This document shows, piece after piece, positions 2,985 through 59,353 of a DNA stretch of 64,000 nucleotides. Both the position numbers and the translations under genes were made by a program. The first letter of the stretch is position 1; every line of letters begins with the position of its first letter. The notes under the pieces were generated by a model. That model was not told the origin of the DNA. It was given only the letters and a program-made list of their open reading frames with translations, and did no database searches. This stretch comes from Octopus vulgaris (lineage: Eukaryota): assembly GCA_951406725.2 (NCBI GenBank), contig OX597829.1, forward strand, positions 58,280,001 to 58,344,000, given 5' to 3'.

Positions 2985-3860
2985 ATCAAAAGAAGACAGG
3001 TGTATGCACAATAGGCAGGTGTATTAGTTTGACGCTCAGGAAAGTGAAAAAGTCTTTCGTGTTTCGAGCCCACGCTCTTCATCAGAAAAGAACAGGAGAA
3101 AATAAACAGAGAGGGAATAAAATGATGAAGAGAGAGGTGGGTAGGAGTGAAGAGAGGAAGTAGGTGTGAGTTGAGAGGAGGGGAGTCAGATGAAGAGGGG
3201 AGTTGAGCCCATATGGTACAAAGGAGTGAAGAGAGAAGATTAATTCTTGTTCACGGCGAAGGCGCGAGTCCGGATGGCCCCTGTGCAAAGACAATCCGAA
3301 CTCAGACGGGTGTTGTAATGAATGACTGGTAGAGCGGGACTGGGGTGTTGTTGTCGAGTCTAATGTCTCGGAGGTGCTCTGCAAACCGGTCAGCGAAGTA
3401 GCGTCTCGTTTGACTGATGTACAGAGAAGGACAGAAAGAGCAGGAGATACAGTAAGAGACGTTTCTAGACTTGCATGTAAAGAAGTTAGTAATATGATAG
3501 GCACGATGATGGGTGCCTGTGAGGATGGTGATGTTGGAGAGGTAGGGGCAAGTGCGACAGCGTACGTGGAAGCAGGGGAACGGGCCAGATTGGGAGATGG
3601 GGTTAGGGAAGAAACTGTGGACCAGAAGGTCACGTAGGTTGTTGGCTCGTTTGTAGGAGTGGAGGGGTGAAATGGGTAACGGCAGGGCAAGTGTGGGGAG
3701 AGAGAGCAGAGGCACGGTCCACGGAAGTGCTCTGGCAAGGACGGTGTGGATGTTGATGAGGAGATATCCACAGAGGATGAAGTGGCAAACCATGAGTTGA
3801 GACTGAGTCTCAGAGTCATGAATGTCACTGCAGAGCCTGCGCAGACCGAGGAATTGGGAG
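2985..3860 (-). mobile_element. Penelope-like element 3' end (Neptune-type GIY-YIG with Cys-rich linker) plus pseudo-LTR
   Basis: ORF 3302-3793: YKRANNLRDLLVHS, PCFHVRCRTCPY, NVSYCISC..C.SLYISQT.R..RF.EH. HHR-like motif downstream at 3053-3091. Confidence 0.85.
3053..3091 (-). ncRNA. Minimal type I hammerhead-like motif in PLE pLTR (degenerate cleavage site)
   Basis: Minus strand: TCTTTT CTGATGA A GAGC-GTGG-GCTC GAAAC ACG AAAGA. Confidence 0.55.
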
Positions 3861-4020
3861 TATATATATATATATATATATATTATATATGAGTGTATTT
3901 TCCCTCGTTAACAATTAACAGGGGAAAAATAGATAAATAGTTTCCAGGGTAGCATAAATCACACTTGTTTTTAAAGGTAGAAACTTCGGGTATACGTGAA
4001 TTTTTTTGTATAATATACAA

Positions 4021-5447
4021 ATAAATAAATGGAGTTTAACGCAGGTATAATTGAAATACTTTTACTTCCGACACATGTTTAAATTTTTCCGTAGAATGGG
4101 CTTAGGCATCGTTTTTGATAATGATATGACGAAGGCTAACTTTTTAGATATAACGCTGAATTTTATAACTCTACCTTACTTAAAGCAGGTTATACAGAGA
4201 AAATTTTCTACATTGATTCTATTCAGTCTTATTCTAACTTCAATAATGTAGATATGAAATCTAGTTGTAAAGGAATTATCGATAACAAGCATAACTTATG
4301 CACCGATACAAAGCAGAGGAAGGGAGATAACCCTTATTTAATCCCCTATTATCATTCTAAAAGTAAATGTAAGACTTTCAAAAATAATTACACTAAAAAT
4401 AAGATAAATAGTAGTAAAACTATTCGGTTCATTATTCCATACGGGAGACAAATTAAATCTAATCTCCCATTGCAATTTGTCAACCTATTGTTAGGAATTT
4501 TCCTAAGAATTCAAAGTATTTCTCTATTGTCAATTCACATACGGTTAGGATTGATTTTTCCAACACAAAAATAATCTCTTACAAATTATCTCTTCACTAA
4601 TAACAACCTGTTAAATATAAATACATTTACTAATACTAACCTTAATTTAGCTAATACCATCCATCCCTCCAGAAATGTTAATAACAAGGTTATTGTATCT
4701 GAAGTCAATTCCAACAGAATTAAATTTATGTCAAGTAACTCTAAAATAAAAAATTCTATATACCAGTGTATAATCAGTACTCGTAATAAAGTACGATTTT
4801 ACATTGGAAGCACATCATTAGAGTTATCTAAAAGAATTTCTATCCATTACTCAACATTTAAAGATAGAAATAAACGTAATAGTACCGGTCTCAGCAAACT
4901 GATTTGGGATTTAAAAGACCACAATGAACAATTTCATTTAGAATGGTTGATTCTTTCAATCTCGATACCTTATGACAAAGGCAAGGAATTCTATCTTCTC
5001 TGTAATTCTGAACTATTTTTCATTATTTTCTCTAAAAATCCCCTAGTAAACATGGTTATAGAGCATGCATACCGATGTAAACATTGGCAAAAACATACAT
5101 TTAGTTCATATAAGTAATCTCTATCATTATAGACAATTTAAACATTTTCTTTTTATATTTAACATTCACTAAAAAAATATCCCTCCTCTTTCTATAGGCT
5201 ACTTCTGACATTTTATCATATAACGTTTTTCAAACAATATTAATAGCGTTCAGTTAATCACTATACATATCCACCATTTTCTGTTAAAATGTCTTATTGA
5301 CGAGTTTCATTTCTTCACTTCCCTGAAGAGAAGATTATATTGCTTTACACCTTTTATTCTTTTGAATAATTTCAGTGATATCTTCGAAGCATGTGTCGGA
5401 AGTAAAAGTATTTGAATTATACCTGCGTTAAACTCCATTTATTTATT

Positions 5448-5448
<1 letters not shown>
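4021..5448 (+). mobile_element. Penelope-like element (Naiad-like), 5'-truncated, with inverted pLTR fragment at its 5' end
   Basis: NFLDITLN (RT end). ORF 4728-5117 is a GIY-YIG: IYQCII..FYIGST..R...H..TF..STGLSK.IW.LK..LC.SE..CKH. 4021-4080 is the reverse complement of ~5388-5448. Confidence 0.85.
5314..5406 (+). ncRNA. Type I hammerhead motif with extended stem II in Naiad-like pLTR
   Basis: TTCACTTCC CTGAAGA GAAGAT...ATCTTC GAAGC ATGT GTC|GGAAGTAAA. The inverted copy at 4060-4080 retains AAAC at this position. Confidence 0.7.
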
Positions 5449-5510
<62 letters not shown>

Positions 5511-5511
<1 letters not shown>

Positions 5512-5956
5512 GCGGCAGCTTTAGTCTTATATTTATAGACTGCCATATTAGTATGTCGATAACTATTAATATCCAGTAACGCTGCCGTAATCTCCTTTAG
5601 AGAGACTTAGTAATTTCAATATTTCTATTATTGAAAACAAGTGGATGTATTCCACTGTAACTAGGTAAATAAAATCTTCGAACAGACTGGTTCTGACTAC
5701 GCTGCATTGATAAAGGGCAACAACCCTGAAACATGTCTGCAGATGTCTGACTAGCAAGGTGAAGCGGCTGACCTCTCCTGTTCGAAGGTCGTAATGGACG
5801 CAGGTTCGTGTGTCATATAGCTAGCTAGAGGCGATGGCCTCTTGGAGCTAATCAGCGACAGCTTTAGTCTTATATTTATAGACTGCCATATTAGTATGGC
5901 GATAACTATTAATATCCAGTAACGCTGCCGTAATCTCCTTTAGAGAGACTTAGTAA

Positions 5957-5963
<7 letters not shown>
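5511..5963 (+). repeat. Partial tandem repeat (343-bp unit, ~1.3 copies) containing one hammerhead
   Basis: 5511-~5620 recurs almost identically at 5854-~5963; flanked by (TA)n/(CA)n. Confidence 0.9.
5702..5742 (+). ncRNA. Type I hammerhead, U3-A8 core variant
   Basis: CTGCA TTGATAA AGGG-CAACAA-CCCT GAAAC AT GTC|TGCAG: perfect stems I and II, palindromic ACATGT stem III. Confidence 0.7.
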
Positions 5964-6019
<56 letters not shown>

Positions 6020-6159
6020 ATACATAAATATACATTGTATGTATGTATTCTTTTATTTGTTTCAGTTATTTGACTGCGGCCATGCTGGAGCATCGCCTTC
6101 AGTCGAGCAAATCAACCACAGGACTTATTCTTAATAAGCCTAGAATTTATTCTATCGGT

Positions 6160-6570
6160 CCGTATGACATCACGACAGTATTCAAGAGTAATAAAGCACT
6201 TCGCAAATATCTCCTTCGGGTAAAACCACCAATAGAAGAGAATATAACCAAAGACTGCGTGTACTCCATCCCATACAGCTGTGGTAGGTTATACAAAGGC
6301 GAAACATGCCGCCCCCTCAAAATAAGGGTAGAGGAACATCGCAAAGAGGAACATGAGGAGATATTGATAAATCGGGTATAGCTGATCATGTATGCAAAAA
6401 TGGAGACCACCTCACCCAGTGGGATGAAGTTAAAATAATCGACAGAGAACATCACTGGAAAAAGAGGCAGCACATATGCTAGGACACAATAACGTCCTAA
6501 GCAGACCGAGTACGGATATGAGCAGCATATGGGAACCGGTATTAAGGAAGGATAGGGAAATATTAGATTT
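6160..6570 (+). mobile_element. Penelope/Poseidon-type GIY-YIG endonuclease fragment
   Basis: VFKSNKALRKYL..K..CVYSIPYSCGRLYKGET.R.LK.RV.EH, followed in another frame by ADHV...H..W..VKII..E. Confidence 0.8.
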
Positions 6571-7374
6571 ATAAACCCTAAAATTCACTCTATAAATATC
6601 CACAGGTATAGTGGTTAAGAGCGCGGGCTACTAACCCCGAGTTCGATTCCAGGCAGTGACCTGAGCTATATATACATATGGAATTTGCTGTTGGCGGATT
6701 GGGTGTTCCGTCGGAGAACCTCAGATTTAACGGATGCATAAGTCGCGTCCGGACGTGGGTCAATGGAACGTGCAAGAGGAGCAGGCATCCCACAGTACAA
6801 AAGACTTAGTTGCTGTTGGAGAATTTTGTTGTTATTTAGCCTCAAATCAACCCTGATACAGCAAATCTATGTTGCTATAAAAATATCTCTGGTTATTGAA
6901 GAAGGGTTTTGTTAGGGGAGTGGACCCGGAAGTTGTTCGCAAACATCAGCAGTAATTTTCTTCAGTTGAATACACGTCATTGATTGGTTAAAATTACCCA
7001 AATACGACAATTTTAACACGAAATAACTTCTAAAATATAAAATTTTGTCAAAAACGTTAAGAGTAAACCCTGTTCTATGTGTCACGTTCTGCCAGTATCC
7101 GAAGTTTCAAAGTGTTTAGTTAAAAAAAGAAACAATTAAAAATTAAAAATCTGTCGGTCAGATTGAAAAGATCCCAAATATCTCCTTAGTATATAATGGT
7201 GGCAAGTTTTACATCACCTGAAAAGTCATTAGTTGAACTATCTCTTGACAGACATTTCAACAGACGCCCATAAATTAAATGCAACGTGGCCTGTCGACCT
7301 GTGCCTGATGGCCACAATCGTGGTCCGTCTCGTTTTCTGTTAACACCCAGACACCAAAAAGAAAAGAACGAGCG

Positions 7375-15167: not shown

Positions 15168-17153
15168 TCATCATCATTGTTTAACATTCCATGGCTTGGA
15201 CGGTTTGACTGAGGGCTGGCAAGCCAGGAGGCCTCACCAAGCTCCAGTCTGATCTGGCAGTGTTTCTACAGCTGGAAGCCCTTCCTAACACCAACTACTC
15301 CGAGAGAAGTGGGTGCTTTTTATGTGCTACTGACATGGGAGCCAATCAGGCAGCACTGGCATTGGCCACATTCAGATAGTGCTTTTTACGTACTACCAGC
15401 ATAGGGGCCAGGTGGGGTGGGCGGCGGTAGGGGGCTGGCATCAACCACGTTTGGATGGTGCTTTTTATGTGCCACCGACACAGGGAGGCACTGGCAATGA
15501 CCCACTCATGTTCAGTGCTTATTGCGTGCCACCAGCACAAGAGCCAGTCAGGTGGTACTGGCATTGGACACAACTATTTCCATTTGATTTTCATTTTACT
15601 TGACTCAATAGGTCTCCTTGAGCATGGTGTGTCACCATACTTTTTAAATGGGTTGGTTTTTGCAACACTGGTGTAGGCTACAGCTGTGGACTCACTTTAT
15701 TTGCCGGGTCTTCTCAGTCACATCATATCTCCAGAGGTCTTGGTCTTTCAGCATTGCTTCTGTGAAACCTAATGTTTGAAGGTCATGCTTCACCCCCTCA
15801 TCCCATGTCTTCCTCTTCAACAGGTTCCTTCCAATGTTAGGGAGTGACACTTCTTCACACAGCCCTCCTCATCCATATGCAGCACATGACCATACCAGAA
15901 CAGTTGTCTTTCGATTTCACTTGCCTCAAAAGGTCTTCGCAAGCAGAGTTTAGTGTCCAAAGAAGGAAAGGGTACGCATAAGTGGGATGGTTACGCCCCT
16001 GGCACAGACCACGAGGTTATGGTTTCACTTGGCTTGCTGGGTCTTCTCAAGCACAGCATATTTCCAAAGGTCTCGGTCACTAGTCATTGCCTTGGTGAGG
16101 CCTAATGTTTGAAGGTCATGCTTCACCACCTCATCCCAGGTCTTCCTGGGTCTACCTCTTCCACAGGTTCCCTCAACCTCTAAGGTGTGGTACTTTTTCA
16201 CACATCGATCCTCATCCATTCTTACCACGTGTCCATACCAGCGCAGTCGTCTTTCTTGCACACCACATCTGATGCTTCTTAGGTCCAACTTTTCTCTCAA
16301 GGTACTTACACCCTGTCGAGTATGAACACTGACGTTACACATCCATCGGATCATACTGGCTTCATTCCTTGTGAGCTTACGCATGTCCTCAGCAGTCACG
16401 GCCCATGTTTCACTGTCATGTAGCATGGCTGTTCGTACACATGCGTCATACAGTCTACCTTTTACTCTGAGCGAGAGGCCCTTTGTCACCAGCAGAGGTA
16501 AGAGCTCTCTGAACTTTGCCAAAGCTATTCTTACTCTAGCAGTTACACTTTCAGCGCACCCACCCCCACTACTGACTTGGTCACCTAGGTAACAGAAGCT
16601 ATCAACTATTTCTAGTTTTTCCCCCTGGAAAGTGACGGAAGTTGTTTTCTGCATATTTTCAGTGTTTATTGCTCCTGAGCATCTGCCACATACAAAAACT
16701 ATTTTCCTAGTTAGCCTTCCTTTGACATTGCTGCACCTCTTATGTGTCCATAACTTACACTTGGTGCATCCTATAGAGTTTCTACCTACGCCCTTTCTAC
16801 AGATTGAGCAGGGCCATCTACCCGAAGGCGTTTGTGATTTGTCTACCTTCCTACTTATTAGGACTTTGGTTTTAGCTAGGTTGACTCTAAGGCCCTTCGA
16901 TTCTAATCCTTGCTTCTACACCTGAAACTTCTCCTCCAGGTCTGATAGTGACACAGCAATTAGAGCAAGGTCATCAGCATAGAGGAGCTCCCAGGGGCAT
17001 CCTGTCTTGAATTCCTCCGTTATTGCCTGGAGGACTATGATAAATAGGAGGGGGCTGAGGACTGAGCCTTGGTGGACCCCAACCTCTACCCGGAATTCTT
17101 CACAGTACTCGTTGCCAACCCTCACCTTACTGACAGTGTCCCTGTACATGGCT
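15168..17153 (-). mobile_element. RTE-clade LINE, 5'-truncated (two stacked 3' fragments, junction ~15912)
   Basis: GVHQGSVLSPLLF, LLYADDL, F.YLG, RRLRWYGHV.RM, GRGRPRKTW; 3' tail ends in (GAT)n. Confidence 0.93.
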
Positions 17154-23924: not shown

Positions 23925-24190
23925 ATTGAGAAAGAAAGTAAACTATACTGGATTGTAGATATAGCATGCCCAGCTGACAACAAGGTAAGTCGAGAGATAT
24001 GACAGGTTAGCTTGGGAAGTTAAGCAGTTGTGGTTGATGAAAATGGTAGCAGTAGTACCAATAATTATCGGAGCCCTGGGAACAGTGAGCATTAAATCTG
24101 AAGAAGTGTGTGGAACAAATAGGGGCTGCAATAAGGGTGAAGCATTTGCAGAAAACACCACTGCTTGGAACTGCTCGATAGTGAACAGCT
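23925..24190 (+). mobile_element. R4/Dong-like RLE retroelement 3' fragment between (TAA)n tracts
   Basis: WIVDIACPAD, VVVPIIIGALGTV, LQKTPLLGTA; (TAA)n on both sides. Confidence 0.7.
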
Positions 24191-24197
24191 GACAATA

Positions 24198-24230
<33 letters not shown>

Positions 24231-24233
24231 TAC

Positions 24234-24438
24234 CTTTCTTCCTAAAGCATGTAGAGTATTAACAACTTGTAGCATATTCGTGTTGTCATAAAGATCAACA
24301 GTCTGAAATAGATCATTCTTCAGAACACCATAAGATTCGATGGCTTTTAAAAAGTTTGCAATATTCTCCATCATGTAAAAGGCAGATTTATTTGTGTTTA
24401 CCTTCCTAATGCTGTTTGGAGATAACTGATTCATTAAC
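24234..24438 (-). CDS. Myophilin-like coding exon 4: (K)LMNQLSPNSIRKVNTNKSAFYMMENIANFLKAIESYGVLKNDLFQTVDLYDNTNMLQVVNTLHALGRK
   Basis: CAG acceptor; first G completes the AAG split codon; 205 nt; GTAATT donor. MENI..FL and DLFQTVDLY motifs. Confidence 0.96.
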
Positions 24439-24463
24439 CTGGTAATATAAAATGAAATACAAA

Positions 24464-24935
24464 GTGCAATCCAGAAGTTTTGAGACTCTTGTTAGCAGAG
24501 GCAGTTATAAAGATTCTACATTATTGTAATTTTAGTATAACTCTACTATACATCAAATAAGCTGACCTGCCAACTTTTGTTATTCCAGATGGAAGAACAA
24601 AGCTGTAACAACACACCCTATTAATAGGCTGACCTGCTAACATTTTTTAAAACTCCAGATTGAAAGAGATGGCTCTAACTGCATTTTGACCACACCCTAC
24701 TGCTAATAAGCTGGCCTGCCATCTTTTATTATTCTAGACTAAAAATGACAGCTGTAATAGCATTTTGAACACACTTTACTAAACACTGCTTTTTATAACC
24801 ATGAGGTGCATTTCAGAAGTTCTGAAACTTTTCTTAGCAGAGGCAGTTATAACAATTCTAGATTATTGTAATTTTGGTTCAACATTATTAAATATCTAAC
24901 AAGCTGACCTGCCAACTTTTGTTATTCTACACTGA
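24464..24935. repeat. Intronic direct repeat (342-bp period) built from ~70-85-bp subrepeats
   Basis: GTGCA..CAGAAGTT.TGA.ACT at 24464 and 24806; AAGCTGACCTGCCAAC-like motif at ~24559, 24627, 24708, 24901. Confidence 0.75.
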
Positions 24936-25232
24936 AGGAGAATGTTTTATGTTTAAAATGGTCATATCTGGCCTCTCACACCAACCCTACAATATCAATT
25001 GTTCTTAGCATTTAAAATATTCAACCTGTTTTATGTTTAAACTGACCAGATCTGGCCTTTCACACCAAACTTAGATTTGACAGAGTAATCTAAATGCTAA
25101 AAGGTTAAGAAAAATCTAAAACAAAGATTTTATTGCTTAAAGAGAAAAACTTTGATGCCAATGTTATGTAAATAGGGACCCAGGAGTTGACGTCACAAAG
25201 AAGCAATGAAAGCTTTTAAAATTTTGACTTAC

Positions 25233-25306
25233 TTGCAAAGTATTACTCCATCTTTCAACTGTTGATGAAAACCAGTTTCTCCAAGTGGTACGCTACTGTC
25301 TTCTCC
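25233..25306 (-). CDS. Myophilin-like coding exon 3: GEDSSVPLGETGFHQQLKDGVILC(K)
   Basis: CCACAG acceptor, 74 nt, GTAAGT donor (phase 2); LKDGVILC is the CH-domain signature. Confidence 0.93.
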
Positions 25307-26248
25307 CTGTGGAGTAGATAGATTAAATAAATAATTTTAGTTCTGTAAAGTGGTTGGCATTAGGAAGAGCAGCCAGTCATAAAAGTCATACCCAAGCCGA
25401 CAGCAGAGCTTGGTGTAGTCCTCTGTCTTGCCAGCCAGGTCCTGTCAAACCATCCAACCCATGCCAGCATGGAAAATGGATATTAGATGATGATAATGTT
25501 AATCAAATTATATAAATATATATCTAATATAATCTGTCCAGCTGAGATAGCCTTGTATCTCCTCTACTGCAAGACACCCTATTTCCTCCCCATCATCATC
25601 TGGCACAAAGCCATCTTCCTCAATACTACTTCCCCTTTCAGTCAAAAGGTCCTTTGTTTTGCAAAGTATTTGGCAACCTCACTGATGCTGGTGCCACTAC
25701 ACTCTGTTAAGTGGTTGGTGCTAGGAAGTGTATCCAGCAGTAGAAACCATGCCACATCAGGTTTATCAGCTTATGATGATGATGTTGGTGATGATGACAA
25801 TGATGATGTCATTGATGATAATGATGATGATGACGGGAGAATGAGATGTGGCTCTTACAAAGACCATTGGACAAATGCACGGTGCTACATGTAGGTGCTA
25901 CATGTAGGTGGAAGATGACAACTCATGAACGGTGTGAAAAAAGACAGAAGCTCATCTATTATGGCCACATTTGAAGAAGCAAACATTATCTGAAAACATT
26001 AACATAAAAGGAAGAGCAGAGGGAAATGATATGAGATGTGAAGAGCTGGATGGAACAAAAGTGGGAGGGTGTCCCAATTCATTGCAGGGAATCAGGAAGA
26101 CTTTCATTCTAACGTCATCGAAACAATGCAGCAGGGTACATCACAATGTCGACTCTTTTGGTCAAATTATAGAAGATTGATGAGGACAGGCAAACAGGAT
26201 TGAATGTAATAAACCATTCCACTGTACAACAATTGAAAAGATACATAC

Positions 26249-26323
26249 CAACTGTTCTCCAATAACACCTTCAATCCAAACTCTGGCTTGCTGCTCTAAC
26301 TCTACATCATACTTTTTCTTCAT
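26249..26323 (-). CDS. Myophilin-like coding exon 2: MKKKYDVELEQQARVWIEGVIGEQL (start of CH domain)
   Basis: TTTCAG acceptor, 75 nt, GTATGT donor; phase 0/0; KYD..LE..AR.WI motif of calponin-homology domains. Confidence 0.93.
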
Positions 26324-26695
26324 CTGAAAGGGAGAACAAGAGAAATACATGAGGACGAGTGTCATATATATATATATATATATATAAACACATACACAAA
26401 CACACATATATATGTACATATACATATATATATACACATACACACATGCACATAAATATATATACACATACATATCAATAATATAATTTAAGAACAAACA
26501 TTGAATTCAGGTTAACAAACTTTATACATCCATGCTTCTACATTTCATTACATATAAATGATTCCATGCCTTTTAAATGTAAAAAAGAAAACACCAGGAA
26601 CAAACAATATATATAAAAAAATATAAAATATGAAAGAAACGTAATTTGTAATTTATTTCTTGCTATACATAAATATATATATAAACACATATACA

Positions 26696-27446: not shown

Positions 27447-27729
27447 TATATATAAATACGTATATATAAATACACATATATATATATACATATCAACTAC
27501 ATATGTGGAAATTCTGTCTGTCGTTGTGTTTGTGGCGTTGTTAGCTAACTCCTCCTACATCGTTTTATTGATTTTGATGAAACTTGATATGTGAGTAGAA
27601 CTCATGTCTGGAAACCTTGTGAGATACTTAGATTGTTGAAAAAATTGATAATACGGCCTCTGGAAGGGACCTTTATATCTAACTCATATAACTAATTTTT
27701 TTAACACCCAAAAGAAATAACCTATAGCA

Positions 27730-28618
27730 TCTGCTGAGGACATGTGTAAGCTTGCAAGGAATGAATCCAGTATGATCCAATGGATGTGTAATGTCAGTGT
27801 GCATACTCGACAGTGTGTAAGTACCTTGAAAGATAAGCTGGACCTAAGAAGCATCAGATGTAGTGTGCAGGAGAGACGTTTGCGCTGGTATGGTCATGTG
27901 GCGAGAATGGCTGAAGATAGGTGTATGAAAAAGTGCCACACCCTAGCGGTTGAGGGAACATGTGGAAGAGGTAGACCCAGTAAAACCTGGGATGAAGTGG
28001 TGAAGCACGACCCTCGAACATTAGGCCTCACAGAGGAAATGACTAGAGACCGAGACCTTTGGAAATATGCTGTGCTTAAGAAGACCCTGCAAGCGAAATG
28101 AGACCATAACCTCGTGGCCTATGCCAGGAGCATAACCAGCCCACTTACGTGTACCTTTCCTTCATTGGACACTAAACTCTGCTTGCGAAGACCTGTTGAG
28201 GCAAGTGAGAATCAGAATTGAAATCAAATTCGATGACTGGCACCCGTGCTAGTGGAGCACTAAGAGCACCATCCGAGCGTGATCATTGCCAGAGTGGCTA
28301 AAAGGCATTCGTGCCGGTGGATCGTAAAAGGCACCTTTCAAGCGTGATCATTACCAGTGTTGCCTTGCTGGCACCTGTGCTGGTGTGCAGGTGACACGTA
28401 AAAAAAAAAAAACATGATTTTCCGTGACTGTTGCCAGTACCACCTGACAAGCCCCACTACACTCACGGAGTGGTTGGTGTTGGGAAGGGCATCCAGCTGT
28501 AGAAACTCTGCCAGATCAAGATTGAAGCCTGGTGCAGCCATCTGGTTTGCCAGCCCTCAGTCAAATCGTCCAACTCATGCCAGCATAGAAAGCAGATGAT
28601 AAACGATGATGATAATGA
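27730..28618 (+). mobile_element. RTE LINE 3' end with full 3'UTR and (GAT)n tail
   Basis: ORF 27742-28101 nearly identical to the C-terminus of the 16025-16654 ORF. Confidence 0.92.
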
Positions 28619-30289: not shown

Positions 30290-31237
30290 ATAGAAAAAGT
30301 CCAAAGAAGGGAAGACGGAGAAAGAAAATTGCCAACGATACACATGAGGTCACATACACATAAACATATATAATGGGCTTCTTTCAGTTTCTATCTACCA
30401 AATCCACTCACAAGACTTTGATGAACTTGAGGCTATAACAGAAGACACTTGCCTAAGGTGCCACACAGTGGGATTGAACCTAGAACCATGTGGTTGGGAT
30501 GCAGCCATGCCTGCACCATAAGTGATTATATTTCATTAAAAAGAATATTTGTGTTGCGTGAATAGCAAAGCAAACGAGCTGAAAGGTTGTTGTGTTAATT
30601 TGTACGAGTGTTGTTAACTGTTAACTAGATATGGATTGTAGACAATGAGTTATTTGAAAGCTGTGGTGAGGAAGCAGGAGGGTGCGGAAGACACAATACT
30701 ATTTAACTTAAAGAGTTGTTAAGGTTTTATCTGAAGATATTGTCATTGAAATACATAGAAGCACGCTCCTCACGTATACACTGGCAAAAACACACACACT
30801 ACACACTTAGCTAAACAGCAAGCTTAAGGACAGATGATTTTTTGTGATAATGAGTCACTTGACAAATACATGCCCTCCACACACACACACACACACACAT
30901 TCTTATAGTTTTTATATACTTTTACTAGTTTCAGTTATTTGACTGTGACCATGCTGGGGCACCACCTTGAAGAATCTTTAGTCTAATGAATCAACAGCAG
31001 GACTTAATCTTTTTAAAGCTTGCAACTTATTCTATCAGTCTCTTTTGGCAAACAACTAAGTTATGGTGATCTAAACAAACGAACACCAGTTGTCAAGTGA
31101 TGGCAGGAGACAAACATGGACACAATGACACACAGATTACATATAAACGTAGTGAGAATTCACAAAAAAACAAAAGACGAAGTTGGGTGTGTAAACATCA
31201 ACAGATGTATTGGTTTAACACTTGGGAAGTGAAAAAG

Positions 31238-31850: not shown

Positions 31851-33211
31851 TACACTTATGCATAAACAGTGAACTTATGAACAGATGAAGTTTCATGATA
31901 ATGATTTAGTTCCACAACTTTATGCACATGTCTATGTGTATATAAGTAGATATATACACACACATAAATGGTGAGAAAATGAGAGTGAAGGAGTGAAGGA
32001 AAATGTGTGACTGCACAATGGAGAAATAGAAAGAGAGCAAGAAAAGAGAGAGAGAGGGAGAGATTGATAGGATGGGAAAGATGGCGAGGACAAGAAACAA
32101 GGATGCTGATGTGTAGGGAGTAGTGATGAGAAGTTGGGGAGAGCTGGCAGTGTACAATGGGAGCAGATATAAAGTAACTTGAGATTTTGCGACATTTACT
32201 GCCGATTCTAATTTATCAGAGATTCTGGAAGTGGTGAAAAGAGAGGGGGAAATTCCTTTCATACTTAAGACCAAGTCTGAGATCTTGCAGCCCTCAAAAG
32301 GCAGAAATCTGCTTTAAGCACCCCATATAACCCCTCAAAACTTTTTATTTTTTGGAATTTTCAGAAAACTTTTGCAAATTCGTGTTCTTCACACAGGAAT
32401 ACTGGAAAAAAAAATTTTCTTGAAATTTAAAAATTTTGATATTTTTAAACTACAGTTTGAATTTTTGCTGAAATCCCAGCAACAGACTATTAAATGTGTT
32501 TATGGGGAGAAAGATGTTGAAAAGCATCAATATGTCAAACAAGAAAGATATCAAGTGGTTGTGAGATGTACTAAAAATAACAGTTAATAGCCCTTAAGTC
32601 ACACACAAAAATTTTGTTAGCTTGGTTCTGCATAATCATATTCCTGGGTGTAGAACACAAATTCACAAATATTTTCTGAAAATTCTGAAAAATAAAAAAA
32701 CGTATGAGGGGTTATACAGAGTACTTAAAGCAGAATTCTACCTGTGAAGGTACCCAAAAGTCAGAGGATTAAATAGTGTAACAAATTTAATCCTTTAGCA
32801 TTTAAACAGCCATCACTGGCCCTAATATTCTGTTTTATATACAAACAGACCAGATTTGGTCTCTTACACCTACCCTGCAATGTCATTTGTTTTCACCATT
32901 TAAAGCGGCCATATCTGGCACAAATATTCTACCTGTTTTATGTTCACACAGGCCAGATCTGATCTCTCACACCTACCCTACACTGACATTATAAATATAA
33001 ACAATCACATCATTGAAATTCCTAAACTACAACATTAATTGAAAACAATGTCAATATATAAGCATTGCATTTGACAGAATAATTTGAATGCTAAAGGGTT
33101 AGATGTATGCACACACGCACACATATGTATACATATAAACACACACATATATATGTATGTATACACACACACACACACGTATATTTATGTATGTATATAC
33201 GCACACACACA

Positions 33212-33619
33212 TTCTTTTACTTGTTTCAGTCATTTGACTGTGGCCATGCTGGAGCACCAGCTTTAGTCGAGCAAATCGACCCCAGGACTTATTCTTTGTA
33301 AGCCTAGTACTTATTCTATCGGTCTCTTTTGCTGAACAGCTAAGTTACGGGGATGTAAACACACCAGCATCGGTTGTCAAGCGATGTTGGGTGGTGAGGA
33401 CAAAGACACACAAACATATACACACACACACACACACATATATATACATACATATATACGATGGGCTTCTTTTAATTTCCGTCCACCAAATCCACTCACA
33501 AGGTTTTGCACGGCCCGAGGCTATAGTAGAAGACACTTGCCCAAGGTGCCACGCAGTGGGACTGAACCTGGAACCATGTGGTTGATAAGCAAGCTACTTA
33601 CCACACACCCACTCCTGCA

Positions 33620-36355: not shown

Positions 36356-36978
36356 TATTTATCTCTTACTGAATGGATTATTTTTTTTGTTGATATTACC
36401 TAAATGAGAAAGTAAAATAAATATATATATATATATCTTCTTTTACTTGGTTCAGTCATTTGGCTGTGGCTAAGCTGGGGCACTGCCTTGAAGGGTTTTA
36501 ACCAAACAAACCGACACTAGAACTTAATATTTTTAAGCCTAGTAATTATTCTATCGGTCTCTTTGCCGAACCACTAAGTTACGGGAACAAATGCACCAAC
36601 ACTGGTTGTCAAGTGATGGGGTGTGTGTGTGACAAACACAGACACAAAGACACACATATATATACATATATAATGAGATTCTTCCAGTTTCTGTCTACCA
36701 AATCCATTCACAAGGCTTTGGTCAGCCTGAGGCTATAGCAGAAGACACTTGCCCAAGGTGCCATGCAGTGGGATTGAACCTGGAAGTAAACTTCTTATCA
36801 TACACCCATGCTTGTTCCTACAGAAGACAGTTTCAGAGAACCAAATATTCCATGTGAAATGTGGCAGGATTTGGAAAATAGTGATATTTGAATGTCTACA
36901 CTACATGTATCAAATGTCATGCTGAGAAATACATTATTCATAAAATTTTATACACAAAGTGATAGAAGATCAACTTAC

Positions 36979-39528: not shown

Positions 39529-41300
39529 CAGTGGCATACCAAGAGGTGGGGGACAGTCTGCCCCAAGCGATACAATTTATTTGTATCAATATATGCAGTA
39601 TAAATATTATAGACTTTAATAATGTATAGTAGCTATTAAAATTTCCTTAAAATTTAGTAAACTTGTATTGTTTGTTAATATTGTGTAATATACAGTATAA
39701 TGTTGTTAATACAGTAATATTGTGGATAAGACAGTGTGTCAATGATATTCAGAAAGCTGGTTATTTTTTAGGCTGGTCTATATTCTCATATATTTATGAT
39801 ATCACTGATATAATCTGAGATGAAGTGAATTAAGGACAGCAATGCAGCATTTTGAAAGAAAAAAAAAGGAAAAAGAAAAACGAGAGAAGAAAGGCAAAAT
39901 GAAGGTGCCATAATTAAATTTCTCATCAGACCCGACCATCCAGACGAAACTGGTATTACAGTAGAAGGTCATGGAGATGATGCTGATCCACCACAAACTA
40001 CCGAAGAACAAAACTCTTATATTAATTTGAAAGACATTGGGATGTGGTTTGCTTAGTTTAATCATGGTGACGGTATTCGGGAAATCCTTGTACAACAAGG
40101 ATTGAAGGCTGTGCAAAATATTGACTGTGAATTCAAAGAAGTTGTATGTCCAGGACTGGAGAGACTAGAAGATTGTCAAAAAAGTAGTTTTTTTCAAATT
40201 CTACAAAATGGGGGAAAAAATCTTGAGAACTTGGGTGATATACTCTTCATTGAAAGAAGCTGTGTTTTGTTTTGTTGTAAGCTATTTTCAAGTGGAAACT
40301 CAAAGTTCTGCTCAGTTGATGATTTCAAATCTCAGTGGAAGTTGAATCTTAAGATAAAAAAAAATATGAATCTAGCCCTGCACATGAGAATGCATTTTAC
40401 TCAGTGGAAAGAGTTAGAAATTTGCCTTTCCAAAGGCGATGTAACAGACAAAGAACAAACCTAAGTTGAAAATGAAACAAAGAAATGGAAGCAAATCTTG
40501 ACTAGATTCTTGGATATAATTATGCTTCTTGATAAGCAAAACTTAGCTTTATGAGGCCATAGAGAAGATATTCTAGTTGAGAAGGCAACTGAAAGTGAAG
40601 GAAATTTTCTGGAGCTTGTTCAATTGACAAAATTCGACCCAGTGCTACGTGAACATTTGGTGAAAGTAAAAATTGATAAGTTTGCAATTTCCTATCTCTC
40701 ACCAAAAATTCAGAATGAATTTATGAACGCCCTGGGAGGATCAAGTGAGAAAGGAAGTTATTGATGAAGTGAAACAGAGTAAATACCATTGCATTATTTT
40801 TGATAGTACTCCAGACATTTCTCATATTGACCAAAATCCCCAGGTGCTACATTATGTTAAAATAGATGAAAAGGAAGTAAAAATAGAAGAATCCTTTCTT
40901 CGCTTTATTGAGATGAAAGGCAAAAATGCTGAGCAAATTACATCAATGATTCTGAAACAATTAGAAATGGATGACATTAACATTCAAGAGTGTCGTGGAC
41001 AAGCATTTGATAATGCGGCAGTAATGGCAGGTCATCGATCTGGTGTTCAAGCACGCATTACAGAAGTTAATCTAAAGATTGTATTTGTGTCATGCGTCAA
41101 TCACTCTTTGAATTTAGCAGCTGTGCATGTAGCATCAATGGGTGCAGATTCAGCTACATTTTTGGGGACACTGGATCGTTTATTTTCATTCTTCTCAGCC
41201 TCAACTATCAAACGGGCAGGTGCAGTGAAAATTGTACATAGAAAAATTCACGGAAATCATCACTGCGCTAGAACGGTTGATGGAAGATGCAAAAAATGTA
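39529..41300 (+). mobile_element. hAT transposase pseudogene (ZMYM1/Tip100-like), 3'-truncated
   Basis: CAGTGGC.TA-type left end; FCCKLF; YLSPKIQNE; IIFDSTPDISHIDQ; CRGQAFDNAAVMAG; CVNHSLNL. Confidence 0.88.
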
Positions 41301-42390
41301 TATATATATATAAAATCAAACAAAAAAATGGAACAAGAACATAACAAGCCACAACAAAACATTCAAACAGTTAGAGAGTACAAAAAAAGGACAGGGAAAA
41401 ACAAGGACGGGTCATTTGGAGCTGTCAAACATCAGTCAAGAAGCAGATTGCCTTTGCAGTTTCGGGCTGTTTCTCTCAAGATGCTCTCATCTGGCCAGCC
41501 CCAAGAAAACCTAAGCTAAGAGGACTAGATTCTTTAGAAGAAAGCAAGCGAATGTATATGAAAACAAGGATGAAAAAAAAACCGGAGAAATGGTACACAA
41601 ATACAAAAAAACAAACAACAAGTGTCTTTTGACTAAGGACGACTTAAATTAAGCTGGCATGTGTGGAAGTGAAACTTTATGGCAGGGACATAGAAGATGA
41701 AAATCATGGGAAGGAATATGGGATGCTACACGGATGGTAGTCAAACCAAGAAAGAAAGGTCAGAACACTGGTCATGCGGAAGGAGAGGAGAGAGGTAGTG
41801 GGCAGAGGGACTAAAGAATTAGGGAAGGACGAGAGAGAGAGAAAAAAAGGAAAGAGACAGAGTGAGGGAGGAGGGAAACATCATTATTTAATGTCTGTTG
41901 TCTATGCTGGCATGGGCTGGATGGTTTGACCAGGGCTAGTAAGCTGAGGGGCAGCGCACCAGACTCCAGTCTGATTTGGCAGAGTTTCTATGACTGGAAG
42001 CACTTCCTAACACCAAATATATATATATATATATATGGACACAGGTGTGGCTGTACAATAAGAAATTTCCTTCCCAATCACATGGTTCTATGTTCACTCC
42101 TACTGTTGGTATATTGGGCAAGTGTCCTCTACTATAGCCATGGATCACCCAAAGCTTTGCGAGTGGATCTGGTAGACAGAAACTGGGAGGATGAGAGACA
42201 AACTTCCACCAGGATAGGACACCAGTCTAACACAGGTAATATTACCAGATGATCTGGCACGACAAAGGTGGACTGTGACAATGGAGAATATAGTGTTGTG
42301 TACAGAAATGCAACAAAAGAGATGAGAGATAAACAAGAATTAAATTTGACAGAAAAGTTTGAATGCTAAAGGGTTACATAGTTATAGAGG

Positions 42391-44390
42391 ATCATCATCA
42401 TCATCATCATTTAGCATCCGCTTTCCATGCTAGCATGGGTTGGACGATTCAACTGGGGTCTGGGAAGCCAGAAGGCTGTGCCAGGCCCAGTCTGATCTAG
42501 CAATATTTCTACGGCTGGATGCCCTTCCTAACACCAACCACTCCGTGAGTGTAGTGGGTGCTTTTTACGTGCCATCGGCACAGGTGCCAGACGAGGCTGG
42601 CAAACGGCCACGATCGGATGGTGCTTTTTACGTGCCACCGGCACAGAGTCCAGTCGGGGTGGCACTGGCAACGGCTACGTTCGGATGACTCTCTTACGTG
42701 CCACCGGCACTGGTATCACAGCTACAATTTCCATTGATGTTGATCGATTTTGATTCTGATTCTCACTTGCCTCAACAGGTCTTCACAAGTAGGGTTTTGT
42801 GTCCCCAGAAGGAAAGGAATGCATAAGTGGACTGCCTACATCCCAGGTAGAGGCCATGGGTGATGGTCTCACTTGTCCTGCCGGGTCTTCTCACGCACAG
42901 CATACTTCCAAATGTCTTGGTCTCTAGTCATTTCCTCGGTGAGACCTAAAGTTCGAAGGTTGTGCTTCACCACCTCATCCCAGGTTTTCCTGGGTCTACC
43001 TCTTCCACAGGTTCCCTCAACCGCTAGGGTGTGGCACTTTTTCACACAACTATCTTCAGCCATTCTCGCCACATGACCATACCAGCGCAAACATCTCTCT
43101 TGCACACCACAACTGATGCTTCTTAGGTCCAACTTTCCTCTCAAAGGTACTTACACTCTGTCGAGTATGAACACTGACATTATACATCCATCGGAGCATA
43201 CTGGCTTCATTTCTTGCGAGCTTACGCATATCCTCAGCAGTCACGGCCCATGTTTCACTGCCATGTAGCATGGCTGTTCGTACTCATGCATCATACAGTC
43301 TGCCTTTTGTTCTGAGCGAGAGGCCTTTTGTCACCAGCAGGGGTAAGAGCTCTCTGAACTTTGCCCAGGCTATTCTTACTCTAGCAGTTACACTTTCAGC
43401 ACACCCACCCCCGCTACTGACTTGGTCACCTAGGTAACGGAAGCTATCAACTATTTCTAGTTTTTCCCCCTGGAAAGTGACGGAAGTTGGTCTCTGCACA
43501 TTTTCAGTGTTTATTGCTCCTGAGCATCTGCCACATACAAAAACTATCTTCCCAGTTAGCCTTCCTTTGACATTGCTGCACCTCTTATGTGTCCATAGCT
43601 TACACTTGGTACATTTTATAGAGTTTCTACCTATGCCTTTTCTGCAGATCGAGCAGGGCCATCTACCTGAAGGCGTTTGTGATTTGTCTACCTTCCTACT
43701 TATTAGGACTTTTGGTTTTAGCTAGGTTGACTCTAAGGCCCTTCGATTCTAATCCTTGCTTCCACACCTGAAACTTCTCCTCCAGTTCTGATAGTGACTC
43801 AGCAATTAGAGCAAGGTCATCAGCATAGAGGAGCTCCCAGGGGCATACTGTCTTGAATTCCTCTGTTATTGCCTGGAGGACTATGATAAATAGGAGGGGA
43901 TTGAGCCTTGGTGGACCCCTACCTCTACTCGAATTCTTCACTGTACTCATTGCCAACCCTCACCTTACTAGCAGTGTCTCTGTACATGGCTTGCACAGCT
44001 CTCATTAACCATTCATCTATCCCTAGTTTCCTCATTGACCACCAGATAAGGGATCGGGAGACCCTGTCGAAGGCTTTCTCCATGTCAACAAAAGCCAGGT
44101 ACAGGGGCTTATCTTTGGCTAGGTATTTCTCCTGCAGCTGTCTTACCAGAAATATGGCATCAGTAGTGCTTTTCCCTGGCACAAACCCAAACTGCATCTC
44201 ATCTAAACTAACTCTCTTTAATTAGTTGGGCTATGACCCTCTCCGTAACCTTCATTATCTGATCCAACAGCTTGATACCTCTGTAATTATTTGTATATAG
44301 GGCATCACCTTTACCTTTGTAACAGTTGACTATTATACTGCTACACCAGTCATTGGGAATGACTCCTTCATGTATCACCTGGTTAACTAT
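42391..44390 (-). mobile_element. RTE LINE, longest copy (~2 kb; RT through 3' tail), frameshifted
   Basis: QFGFVPGKSTTDAIF, AFVDMEKAFDRV, LLYADDL, GRGRPRKTW; (GAT)n tail at 42391. Confidence 0.95.
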
Positions 44391-44999: not shown

Positions 45000-46160
45000 A
45001 AGAGCAAACCGTACATCTGGAAAAACCAATCCTAACCGGGTGCAAGTTGATAATAGAGTAATACCTAGAATTCTTTGGAAAATTCCTAATAATAGCTTCC
45101 CAAAACTGCAAAGGAAGATTAGATTTAGTTTGTCTCCCATAGGGAATAATCAACCAAATAGTTTTACTATTAGTTGCCTGATTTTTAGTTTAACCATCTT
45201 TAAAAGACATCGATTTACCTTTAGAATGAAACAAGGGGTTTAAATAAGGGTTATCTCCCTTCCTCTGTTTGGTGTTGGTGTATAAATTAAAATTGATATC
45301 GTTTATATCGTTACAACTAGATTTCATGTCTCCATTAGTAAAGGTAGAATAAGATTGAATGGAATTAATGCAGGTAACTTTATCTGTATTACCTGCTTTA
45401 AGTTATTGAAAATGTCAACATTGGCAGATAACTTAGACAATCTAAATGAAATATCCTTAACTAAGTTCTTACTGATTGCCCTAGAATGATTACTGAATTG
45501 GCTAATATACTTAAGATTGGTCGATGGTTTGTGGTATAGGAAGTACGAATTATTGGGTAAGTTAAGTGTAGCATCTAAAAAGTTGGCCTTCATTACATCA
45601 TCATCAAAAACAATGCTTAAGCCCATTCTAGAGAAAAACTTAAACTATTCTTAACCTTTTGTACTTTTTGGTTAGAAACATTTTGAAGATAAAGTAAACA
45701 ATCACCATGATATAGACCTCCATTTATGTTTGGGAACTGGTCTGCCATTTCATAAAGTGTATATATATACAGACTAAATCAGCTATTTGTGCTGAATCAG
45801 AACTTCCTGTCGTAACATCAAAACCATCGTGTGTGTCTTTATGGACCCACATCTTATTGTCAAACTTTATGATAGATTTTCTGGCAGCCAACATTAATTT
45901 CTTCCCTGGTGAGACCAGCTTTGTTATGAGCAAGCCAAAGTACTATTGGGTTGATGGAGGAATAAAAACTAGAAATGTCCAACTGGACAAACTTAGTGCT
46001 CCTCTTATTAGTAATAGAACTAAACCAGTCAACGACTTGGAATGAATTGGACCATAAACTAAGCTTTAATTATTTTTAACTAATAAGTACACTGATGTCA
46101 GAGCTAGAAAGACAGATAAGCCTCAAGGATGGGTTATTAAAAAAATGTTGCTTATGATCT
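45000..46160 (-). mobile_element. Naiad-like Penelope element RT fragment, same family as 4021-5448
   Basis: GFDVTTGSSDSAQIADLV..Y; NFLDATLNL...Y..YHKP....YI...SNH; IIPYGRQ.KSNLPLQF shared with the 4254 ORF. Confidence 0.85.
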
Positions 46161-46395: not shown

Positions 46396-48085
46396 TCATC
46401 ATCATCATCGTTTAACGTCTGTTTTCTGTGCTAGCACGGGTTGGACAGTTCGACCGGGGTCTGGGAAGCCAAGAGGTTGCACTAGGCTCCAGTCTGATCT
46501 GGCAGTGTTTCTACAGCTGGAATCCCAACCACTCCATGAGTGTAGTGGGTGCTTTTTCGTGCCACTGATACAGAAGCCAGTCAAGGCGGCGCTGGCATCG
46601 GCCACGTTCGGATGGTGCTTTTTACGTGACACCAGCACAGGTATCACAACTACAATTTCCATTTTATATTTATTTTGATGTTGATGTACTTGACTCAATA
46701 GGTCTCCTCAAGCACAGCAGGTCACCCTACGATCCAAGGTAAGCACAGCAGGCCGTCCTGCGATCCAAGGTACTTTGGATGGGCTGGGGCTATGTGAAAC
46801 TGGTGCAGGAAACAGCCATGAACTCATGTTATTTGTTGAGTCTTTGCAGTCACAGCATATCTCCAGAGGTCTCGGTCTTTTGTCATTGCCTCTGTGAGGT
46901 CCAGCGTTCGAAGGTCATGCTTGACTACCTCATCCCATGTATTCCTGGGTCTACCTCTACCCTGGATTCCTTCAACTGTTTGGGAGTGGCATTTCTTCAC
47001 ACATCTCTCCTCATCCATCCGTAGTACATGACCATACCAGCACAGATGTCTCTCTTGCACGCCACATCCAATGCTTATTATGTCCAGCATTTCTCTCAGG
47101 TTGCTTATATATTTATTTATATGTATATAAATATGTGTATATATATATATAAGTATATGTAAATATATAGCGGTTGAGGGAACCTGTGGAAGAGGTAGAC
47201 CCAGGAAGACCTGGGATGAAGTGGTGCAGTACAACCTTCGAACATTAGGCCTCACCAAGGCAATGACTTTTGGAAATATGCTGTGTTTGAGAAGACCCTG
47301 CTAGCCAAATGAGACCATAACCTCGTGGTCTATGCCAGGGGTGTAACCAGCCCACTTACGCATACCTTTTCCTTCTTTGGACACTAAACTCTGCTTGCAA
47401 AGACCTGTTGAGGCAAGTGAAATCGAAATCAAATTCGATGACTGGCATCTGTGCTTTGGAGCGCTAAGAGCACCATTTGAGTGTGATCGTTACCAGCGTT
47501 GCCATACTGGCACGTGAAAATGCATTCGAATCAGGTCACTGCCAGTGCTGCTGACTGGCTCCTGTGCAGGTGGCATGTAAAAAACACTATTTGAACATGG
47601 CTGTTGCCAGTACCGCCTGACTGGCCCTTGTGCCAGTGGCACATAAAAGCACCCACTACACTCTCAGAGTGATTGGCATTAGGAAGGGCATCCAGTTGTA
47701 GAAACTCTGCCAGATCAAGATTGGAGCCTGGTGCAGCCATCTGGTTTTCCAGTCCTCAGTCAAATCGTCCAACCCATGCTAGCATGGAAAGTGGACATTA
47801 AACGACGATGATGATGATGATGATATATGCCGTTTGCCAGCTCTGTCTGGCCCCGTGCCGGTGACACGTAAAAGCACCATCCGTTCGTGGCCGTTCGCCA
47901 GCTCTGTCTGCCACCTGTGCAGGTGGCACGTAAAAAACACCCACTACACTCTCGGAGTGGTTGGCGTTAGGAAGGGCATCCAGCCGTAGAAACACTGCCA
48001 GATCTGACTGGGCCTGACGAAGCCTTCCAGCTTCACAGACCCCAGTTGACCCATCCAACCCATGCTAGCATGGAAAGCGGACGCA
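46396..48085. mobile_element. Back-to-back RTE 3' fragments (46396-47100 minus; 47170-47825 and 47828-48085 plus)
   Basis: GRGRPR.TWDEVV; CCATGCTAGCATGGAAAG tails with (GAT)n. Confidence 0.85.
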
Positions 48086-58742: not shown

Positions 58743-59353
58743 TTACACACGTAATTATAAAATATTACCTAAGTTTACCGAAAAATGGTCTTTTTTCATG
58801 CCGAACTCTACTTGGTGAAATTATTGATTACTAGTTAATTAACTGATTTTAACCTTTATTATTATTGAAATATATATATAAACAAAATGTGCAGGAGTAG
58901 GTGTGTGGTCAGTATCTTACTTTCCAACCAAATGGTTCCGGTTGAGCCCCACGGCGTGGTACCTTCGGCATGCGCCTTTTCCTATTGCCTTGGGCCAAAT
59001 AAAGCCGAACAAAATGGGTTTAGTAGACGGAACTGATATACATGTTTGTGTCTCGTTTGACAACCGATGCTGGTGCATTTACGTCCCCGTAACTTGGTAG
59101 TTCAGCGCAAAACGGTTAGAAGAAATAAGTACTAGGTTTATAAAGAATAATTCCTGGGGTCGATTTTCTCGAATAGAAGCGATGCTCCAGCATGGCCGCA
59201 GTCAAATGACTGAAACGAGTAAGAGTAGGATGTGTGTGTTTGTGTGTATATATACATGTATGCATATTATATGAGTGTGTATATATAAATATGTGTGTGT
59301 CTATGTACATATATGTGTGTATATAGACGTGTTTATACATTAAATATATACAC

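Follow-up and report, generated by a model that had tools for sequence, protein, structure and literature searches.

What is a short non-coding unit that begins to repeat itself between AT-rich microsatellites of the octopus genome, carries a hammerhead ribozyme motif with an exchanged core pair, and how could it have come to lie there? We addressed this at positions 5511 to 5963 of a 64,000-nt stretch of Octopus vulgaris DNA (the window, numbered from its first letter). We lean towards reading the locus as a damaged, dispersed copy of a many-copy octopus family of ~362-nt units with a U3-A8 core, likely a non-LTR retrozyme mobilised by the enzymes of Penelope-like elements (PLEs).

Anatomy of the repeated unit

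Comparison of the window with itself gave 343 as the strongest period of the repeat, with positions 5510-5620 and 5853-5963 being 97.3% identical (108/111 nt, three mismatches). The 343-nt periodicity and ~110-nt redundancy reported in a first-pass annotation of this DNA are thus borne out. No further copy of the 5510-5620 repeat lies elsewhere within the 64-kb window. The annotation had also placed the element inside (TA)n, which holds for the TA or AT tracts on both sides but not for the left junction, formed by a short CA run rather than pure TA. The features of the locus are as follows.

5454..5510 (unstranded): left flank, (TA)23 at 5454-5499 and then the CA run; likely target microsatellite
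5511..5853 (+): one retrozyme-like unit, 343 nt here, 41% G+C, highly self-paired
5511..5620 (+): redundant segment, copy 1, 110 nt; holds all three differences between the copies
5676..5701 (+): predicted 5' arm of a long rod extending hammerhead stem I; 19 nt lost after 5686
5702..5742 (+): type I hammerhead motif with U3/A8, a descriptor match; predicted cut 5737/5738
5743..5787 (+): predicted 3' arm of the rod; includes 5756-5774, with which the missing 19 nt pair best of all window tiles
5854..5963 (+): start of another unit, the terminal redundancy, with the family-majority letters where the two copies differ
5962..6032 (unstranded): right flank, an (AT)n microsatellite from about 5962

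The longest stop-to-stop frame inside the unit spans 84 codons. At 343 nt here and ~362 nt in the family, with 41% G+C, the unit lies within the bounds of a retrozyme (150-450 bp, non-coding, G+C below 50%, one type I hammerhead). Viewed at this locus, the A-B-A layout also looks like two short terminal repeats, as in a TRIM (a miniature LTR element, here with 110-nt terminal repeats), and SINEs, in which a hammerhead-like motif could be incidental, are abundant in octopus (PMC13282606, available text). We find either assignment scarcely credible. By eye the unit has no LTR, primer binding site, polypurine tract or TG...CA ends and no convincing Pol III box pair; it has no tRNA or 5S match in Rfam at E<=10; fixed terminal repeats are contradicted by ends that vary between copies (5572, 5620, 5631); and the hammerhead motif lies beyond chance, as described below. 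A plant-type LTR retrozyme, with type III motifs in paired LTRs, was rejected: the motif here is type I, single and outside the repeated segment.

A hammerhead with a U3-A8 core

The motif is exactly as first quoted, with perfect stems I and II. Stem I consists of five Watson-Crick pairs (5702-5706/5738-5742) and stem II of four (5714-5717/5724-5727). U3 is at 5707, A8 at 5712, GAAA at 5728-5731 and C15.2 at 5732, and G16.2-U16.1-C17 at 5735-5737 set the predicted cut at 5737/5738. Three helices surround the core with helix I open, the type I layout, and the core follows N3-UGAN-N8-A, GAAA and UH with a Watson-Crick 3-8 pair, here supplied by U3-A8. Helix III is reduced to two base pairs closing a 2-nt loop, AT, inside the palindrome ACATGT (5731-5736). 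Judged by its sequence, such a helix III with a palindromic 2-nt loop would be feasible only as a dimer.

The motif at 5702-5742 exceeds chance: a strict descriptor admitting any of the four 3-8 pairs matched nothing in 2,000 dinucleotide-shuffled units, and nothing in 30 windows shuffled by blocks. The fold of the whole unit was better than those of 100/100 shuffles, with z=-4.05 as a linear and z=-4.98 as a circular molecule. For the isolated motif, a non-catalytic shape is predicted to be preferred (-10.2 vs -8.8 kcal/mol).

Rfam returned no hammerhead in the window at the gathering threshold or at E<=10, in keeping with the earlier statement that a standard search would miss the motif. However, the Rfam search has little sensitivity here, for the C3-G8 motif that lies at 5317-5403 escapes it as well. 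The Rfam output otherwise consisted of microsatellite-driven miRNA-type noise and one weak snoRNA match overlapping the unit. Five metagenome loci carrying the core plus stem II pattern were set aside as chance, none having a flanking stem I complement or wider similarity. A CATG-centred palindrome occurs at helix III both in the unit hammerhead (5731-5736) and in that of the relic to its left (5388-5394), a likeness that might reflect convergence or cross-pairing of the two families.

A dispersed family in public sequencing runs

Part of the unit is present in 20 of the 24 public runs listed, under four organism labels; none of the 20 is listed as RNA. Contigs from four of these 24 runs were aligned, namely X1 and X13 (organism A), X3 (organism B) and X7 (organism D), with organism C outside the alignment; cut-offs were a likeness of at least 80% and a variant share of at least 3%. 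Of these four, X13 is a putative RNA run (X1, X3 and X7 are not RNA-flagged), and it was not counted as a sign of transcription. Molecule ends shared between contigs are absent from the listings for the four runs. At the 80% cut-off, 3,969 contigs aligned from X1, 3,211 from X3, 1,344 from X7 and 132 from X13; the summed contig depth of the family does not equal copy number. The contigs are short and none spans the whole unit, so arrays with two or more hammerheads could not show in them. The locus itself has one hammerhead in 1.3 units.

All four runs contain the joint from 5853 to 5511-5516, that is, head-to-tail continuity. Loose ends running into (AT)n occur at 5572 (24, 23 and 21 contigs) and at 5631 (one contig). 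The copy in the window ends at the equivalent of 5620. Each of the three ends comes directly after an AT dinucleotide, and the cut site is not among them. The circular permutation of copies, raised as a check in the first-pass annotation, is supported. By these contigs, the unit is a member of a many-copy, dispersed, ORF-less and circularly permuted family.

The same data bear on whether the unit is instead the pseudo-LTR of an autonomous PLE, here solo or as a truncated partial tandem. A U3-A8 core has been published for pseudo-LTRs of the Schistosoma Cercyon PLEs, mostly as single motifs (PMC4209133, available portion), and in the accessible text of Li 2026, 24 of the 57 retrozyme families in Xenopus correspond to known elements, which are almost always PLE ends. 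Among the loose ends listed, one from X13, at 5792, is long and does not resemble the unit. Against this, the unit joins back onto its own start, with a period of 343/362 nt, in four of four runs; the share of aligned contigs continuing into unlike sequence is 0-0.02 in X1, X3 and X7 (0.1 in X13); upstream loose ends, among those listed, are mostly diverged pieces of the unit; no frame exceeds 84 codons; and the adjacent PLE ends have no match to it. We regard a present-day pseudo-LTR as improbable, and an ancestral origin of the unit from one as likely.

U3-A8 as the family form

Is the altered core a property of the family or of this copy? T>C changes reaching 3% all lie elsewhere than 5707 (6/6 in X1, 6/6 in X3, 7/7 in X7; X13 has additionally one T>C counted without a position). 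Core and stem II are free of variants among the 40 of 56 variant rows listed. A>G changes counted without position number one per run in X1, X3 and X7 and three in X13, and because one A>G per run lacks a position, G8 in a minority of members is conceivable. Every listed variant row attains 8.9% in at least one run, so any G8 among the rows beyond those listed would probably be a small minority, although the rule that ranks the rows is not given. Bar an insertion of 19 nt, one contig from X13 agrees with 5628-5721 at every letter, and TTGATA persists in a divergent loose end of that run. Variants near contig ends go unlisted, and the alignment of many contigs breaks off shortly upstream of the motif, near 5707; the 80% cut-off means that a C3-G8 sister family less than 80% alike would not appear. 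With that scope, U3 reads as the family letter, and A8 as slightly less certain. The proposal that the core reflects covariation and not decay in a single copy is upheld by the per-run tallies, in which U3-A8 is family-wide.

Behind 5672, a loose end in X13 comes from a divergent member that apparently has lost much of the 5' rod arm with TTGATA kept, which hints at a shorter subfamily. RNA editing was considered and rejected for X13: A>G changes affect 10/44 places there vs 4/32 in X1, yet other change types rise too.

Damage in this copy

The first-pass annotation gave the unit as 343 nt, which is correct for the copy at 5511..5853 but not for the family. Other members carry 19 extra bases after 5686, bridged in one X13 contig and seen as loose ends in X1, X3 and X7. 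Because these 19 nt are absent here, the family unit is ~362 nt and 343 is the length of this copy. Among 12,794 window tiles, the best pairing partner of the missing 19-mer is 5756-5774 (-24.6 kcal/mol; next elsewhere, -23.6), an energy matched by 2 of 5,000 shuffled motifs. In the modelled fold, the missing bases would complete the long rod that prolongs stem I.

Further differences mark this copy. Its letters at 5556, 5617, 5776 and 5790 are unlike at least 96.7% of the family, those at 5556 and 5617 being private against at least 98.8%; position 5515 was judged by loose ends. Since the differences between the two redundant segments are private to the first copy, the segments probably did not differ when the element was inserted. 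Having a single ribozyme and a rod that is broken, the 5511..5963 locus would not release a monomer alone and is likely dead offspring. On account of this damage it is the wrong construct for cleavage assays.

Variation and probable selection on the fold

Within the family, the stronger evidence for selection comes from loop III, where two matched pairs of changes occur. The first, 5733 A>T with 5734 T>A, gives ACTAGT (15/14, 19/17, 11/10 and 2/2 contigs in the four runs), and the second, 5733 A>G with 5734 T>C, gives ACGCGT (9/6, 5/3, 3/4 and 2/2). Both preserve the palindrome; linkage of the changes is inferred from their matching counts and depths. Such palindrome-keeping double swaps are what the dimer cleavage model predicts (Cervera and de la Pena 2014, PMC4209133, available text). 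Loop II is freely variable, with 5721-5722 changed at 42-74%, and in stem I pairing survives both 5740 C>T and 5741 A>G. A 358-nt X13 contig and a loose end with CACA before the core suggest full stem I compensation in a divergent member. Taken together, the double swaps, the stem I changes, the free loop II and the member that keeps TTGATA point to selection on the dimer fold.

An opposing reading is that the family is a dead relic, in which a single master copy had acquired both changes and its amplification spread them, without selection on cleavage. Letters common to the family may indeed stem from one master copy, a single founder being able to explain family-wide identity; the monomer is predicted to misfold, and its activity is putative. 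That no listed change falls in the 22 positions of core and stem II carries little weight by itself (~0.09 by hand). Of 36 family variants placed on the circular fold of the 343-nt copy, 8 keep pairs, 10 break pairs and 18 are unpaired; this whole-unit mapping lends no support, and the fold of the 343-nt copy is distorted because of the 19-nt loss. Against a relic stand the two distinct palindrome-keeping doubles and the pairing-compatible changes in stem I, a loop II free to vary beside a divergent member that retains TTGATA, U3-A8 cores reported active in vitro (PMC3088659, accessible part), and a probability of ~4e-5 for two chance changes restoring the pair in one copy. We consider a dead relic very improbable.

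Proposed mobility

How might copies such as this one have been inserted? Because the insertion crosses the cut site and amounts to 1.3 units, the template would have been a circle or an uncleaved tandem RNA. The annotation had favoured a circle; the insertion of more than a unit across the cut site agrees with it, but an uncleaved tandem precursor leaves the same footprint. The last letters of the 5854..5963 segment, AAT, are joined to (AT)n, and this junction is likely the start of reverse transcription.

In the mechanism that we think somewhat the better supported, source loci with at least two units would be transcribed, and two hammerheads would join via the palindrome and cut after C17. 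The released monomer would be ligated into a circle, a PLE endonuclease would nick (TA)n, and the PLE reverse transcriptase would initiate internally at an AU-rich point and proceed for more than one round.

For an anole PLE in vitro, reverse transcription starts internally, nicking is AT-rich, initiation does not require target homology and the main substrate is unprocessed RNA (PMC11167929). These data support mobilisation by PLEs and also sustain an account with the same family and the same enzymes but no circle. Here the template would be uncleaved tandem RNA, and the U3-A8 ribozyme, slow or protein-assisted, would act at another step. Besides the dominance of unprocessed RNA and the internal start, hammerhead mutants of the anole PLE had no effect on insertion and cleavage needed protein (PMC11167929). 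PLE hammerheads are described as poor cleavers in the available text of PMC4209133, and a 1.3-unit insertion over the cut site fits equally well. In Xenopus, only 1 of 9 retrozyme dimers cleaved in vitro (Li 2026, accessible text). Three points speak for a circle, none decisively: the whole unit folds compactly as one (z=-4.98), the redundant segments were apparently identical at insertion, and mussel, coral and axolotl retrozymes yield abundant circles (PMC7229834, available part). We hold the no-circle account to be unlikely but serious, and continue to prefer dimer cleavage, a circle and PLE-driven priming in (TA)n.

Among the joints listed, at least four connect opposite strands, each in one contig per run. 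By analogy, these resemble the inverted copies typical of PLE insertions, where inverted truncated copies have been described (Craig 2021, bioRxiv 10.1101/2021.04.23.441226, accessible text). In one X3 loose end before 5516, the reverse complement of 5559-5570 is joined to the 5841-5853 segment, an inverted junction.

Neighbouring Penelope-like relics

The first-pass annotation named PLE relics on both sides as candidate mobilisers. GIY-YIG relics are indeed present on both sides; as mobilisers they find no backing, having no sequence in common with the unit beyond shuffles. The relics are as follows.

3305-3907 (-): GIY-YIG-type endonuclease relic; 3305-3589 scores 0.95, in a cluster partly annotated GIY-YIG
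4017..5450 (+): decayed PLE with reverse transcriptase, thumb and GIY-YIG pieces; protein match to RT-GIY-YIG; separate insertion
6163..6584 (+): decayed GIY-YIG-type endonuclease fragment, likely another PLE

In the right-hand fragment, 6163-6378 has a feature score of 0.95, the matched cluster having PF01541 in 16% of its members; no Pfam match was found at 6163..6584. By their motifs, we take the relics at 3305-3907 (-) and 6163-6584 (+) to be Neptune-like and Penelope/Poseidon-like, respectively. With three types of PLE in less than 4 kb, this is a local hotspot of insertion. Compared with the unit, the three PLE ends gave no score above shuffles in 6/6 comparisons, the window yielded no partner PLE whose pseudo-LTR matches it, and the PLE pieces within the window are all decayed. 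The neighbouring relics thus show PLE insertion here, not that they moved the unit.

The left relic, a separate insertion with a hammerhead of its own, is not supported as mobiliser. That hammerhead (5317-5403) is a C3-G8 type I motif with a long loop II and GAAG replacing GAAA. The relic has a 64-nt inverted terminal copy (4017-4080 vs 5387-5450), and 4017-4080 has A at the GAAG/GAAA place. It resembles the Hydra clade as described in the available text of Craig 2021. Around 45018-45900 (-) there is a copy related to it. For Octopus vulgaris, the accessible part of PMC13282606 reports Penelope-like families with recent activity.

Other features of the window were recorded alongside. At 6850-6960 (+), one or two degenerate hammerhead-like motifs are visible by eye, which descriptor scans did not recover. 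A short interspersed repeat family occurs at 6047-6160, 30915-31040, 33211-33324, 36417-36559 and 59124-59225, its first copy sitting between the right (AT)n and the right relic. LINE-like 3' fragments recur at 15650-16915, 27721-28158, 42827-43721 and 46782-47300; a 343-nt spacing at 15807/16150 belongs to such a fragment and was rejected as unrelated to the retrozyme family. Exons of a calponin-like gene lie at 23946-26506 (-), of which 24234-24440 (-) is calponin-1-like, 99% identical to the protein in Octopus vulgaris / O. sinensis and, at 90%, less close to that in Argonauta hians; this exon identifies the host as Octopus. A 205-codon frame at 40727-41341 (+) resembles a DNA transposase fragment.

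Significance and comparison with known systems

Each ingredient of this account is already published; what is new is an octopus family with a U3-A8 core. The first-pass annotation treated the U3-A8 covariation and the step from circle to more-than-unit insertion as its own inferences. The former already appears in PMC3088659 and in ~1,300 Schistosoma PLE hammerheads (PMC4209133), and the latter model comes from PMC4209133, in the text available from each. A literature search that covered open papers found no retrozyme from octopus or any other cephalopod, nor an ORF-less one whose consensus core is U3-A8; Repbase, subscription papers or preprint supplements may hold one. The word 'ribozyme' has 0 occurrences in the available text of PMC13282606 and PMC9699675, and the main text of PMC7229834 does not use 'cephalopod', though its supplement may list one.

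The family extends retrozymes to cephalopods. Across a whole family in nature, it supports the tertiary pair between positions 3 and 8 and, through its palindrome-keeping double changes, dimer cleavage, and it illustrates that a whole many-copy family can escape both descriptor and Rfam searches. Its permuted (TA)n insertions form a data set for the question of whether PLEs copy circles or uncleaved tandem RNA. A stronger version, which we put forward tentatively and with more doubt than confidence, is that octopus holds a large unreported family built wholly on a U3-A8, dimer-only rod hammerhead, invisible to Rfam and CUGANGA searches, that produces abundant ~362-nt circles and enters TA tracts by internal priming. 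If this were true, the sites where PLEs prime could be mapped from thousands of permuted insertions, which would also test the circle as template directly, and animal retrozyme counts would be underestimates.

The closest relatives in layout are the retrozymes of the mussel Mytilus galloprovincialis, likewise a mollusc (Cervera and de la Pena 2020, PMC7229834). In the available part of that paper, these are 350-390 bp long with one type I hammerhead, as in the octopus unit, and the two are further alike in G+C below 50%, high self-pairing and many copies; the mussel family coexists with PLEs, and decayed PLE pieces lie near the octopus unit. The octopus unit differs in its U3-A8 core and in being seen only as a 1.3-unit copy. 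Its (TA)n insertion with permuted ends is not described for mussel in that text. Circles and cleavage have been demonstrated for mussel, whereas the octopus unit is known from sequence alone.

With respect to the core, the nearest case is the Cercyon PLE of Schistosoma mansoni, whose ~1,300 hammerheads have the same U3-A8 covariation and are missed by the standard descriptor (PMC4209133, available text). Cercyon and the octopus unit share a dimer-type design and the same proposed circle-to-more-than-unit mechanism. Cercyon motifs are minimal hammerheads in the pseudo-LTRs of a coding PLE, typically with a helix II of 7-8 bp, whereas the octopus unit is ORF-less at ~362 nt, with a 4-bp helix II, a palindromic 2-bp helix III and a long rod. 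Perreault et al. 2011 (PMC3088659) give the C3-G8 to U3-A8 exchange in several natural hammerheads, stated to be active in vitro; in the accessible text, these cores are not described as the consensus of a many-copy animal retroelement.

For Li, Clavereau and Pollet 2026 (bioRxiv 10.64898/2026.07.22.740005), the available text covers 35 species with no mollusc named. It describes dispersed monomers unable to transpose and a link to PLE pseudo-LTRs, as proposed here. Active elements are defined there by two consecutive units with hammerheads, and the octopus locus has one hammerhead. Finally, (TA)n insertion, inverted truncated copies and pseudo-LTR hammerheads are combined in PLEs that target (TA)n, the Hydra clade among them (Craig et al. 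2021, accessible text). These PLEs encode a reverse transcriptase and an endonuclease, whereas the octopus unit encodes neither.
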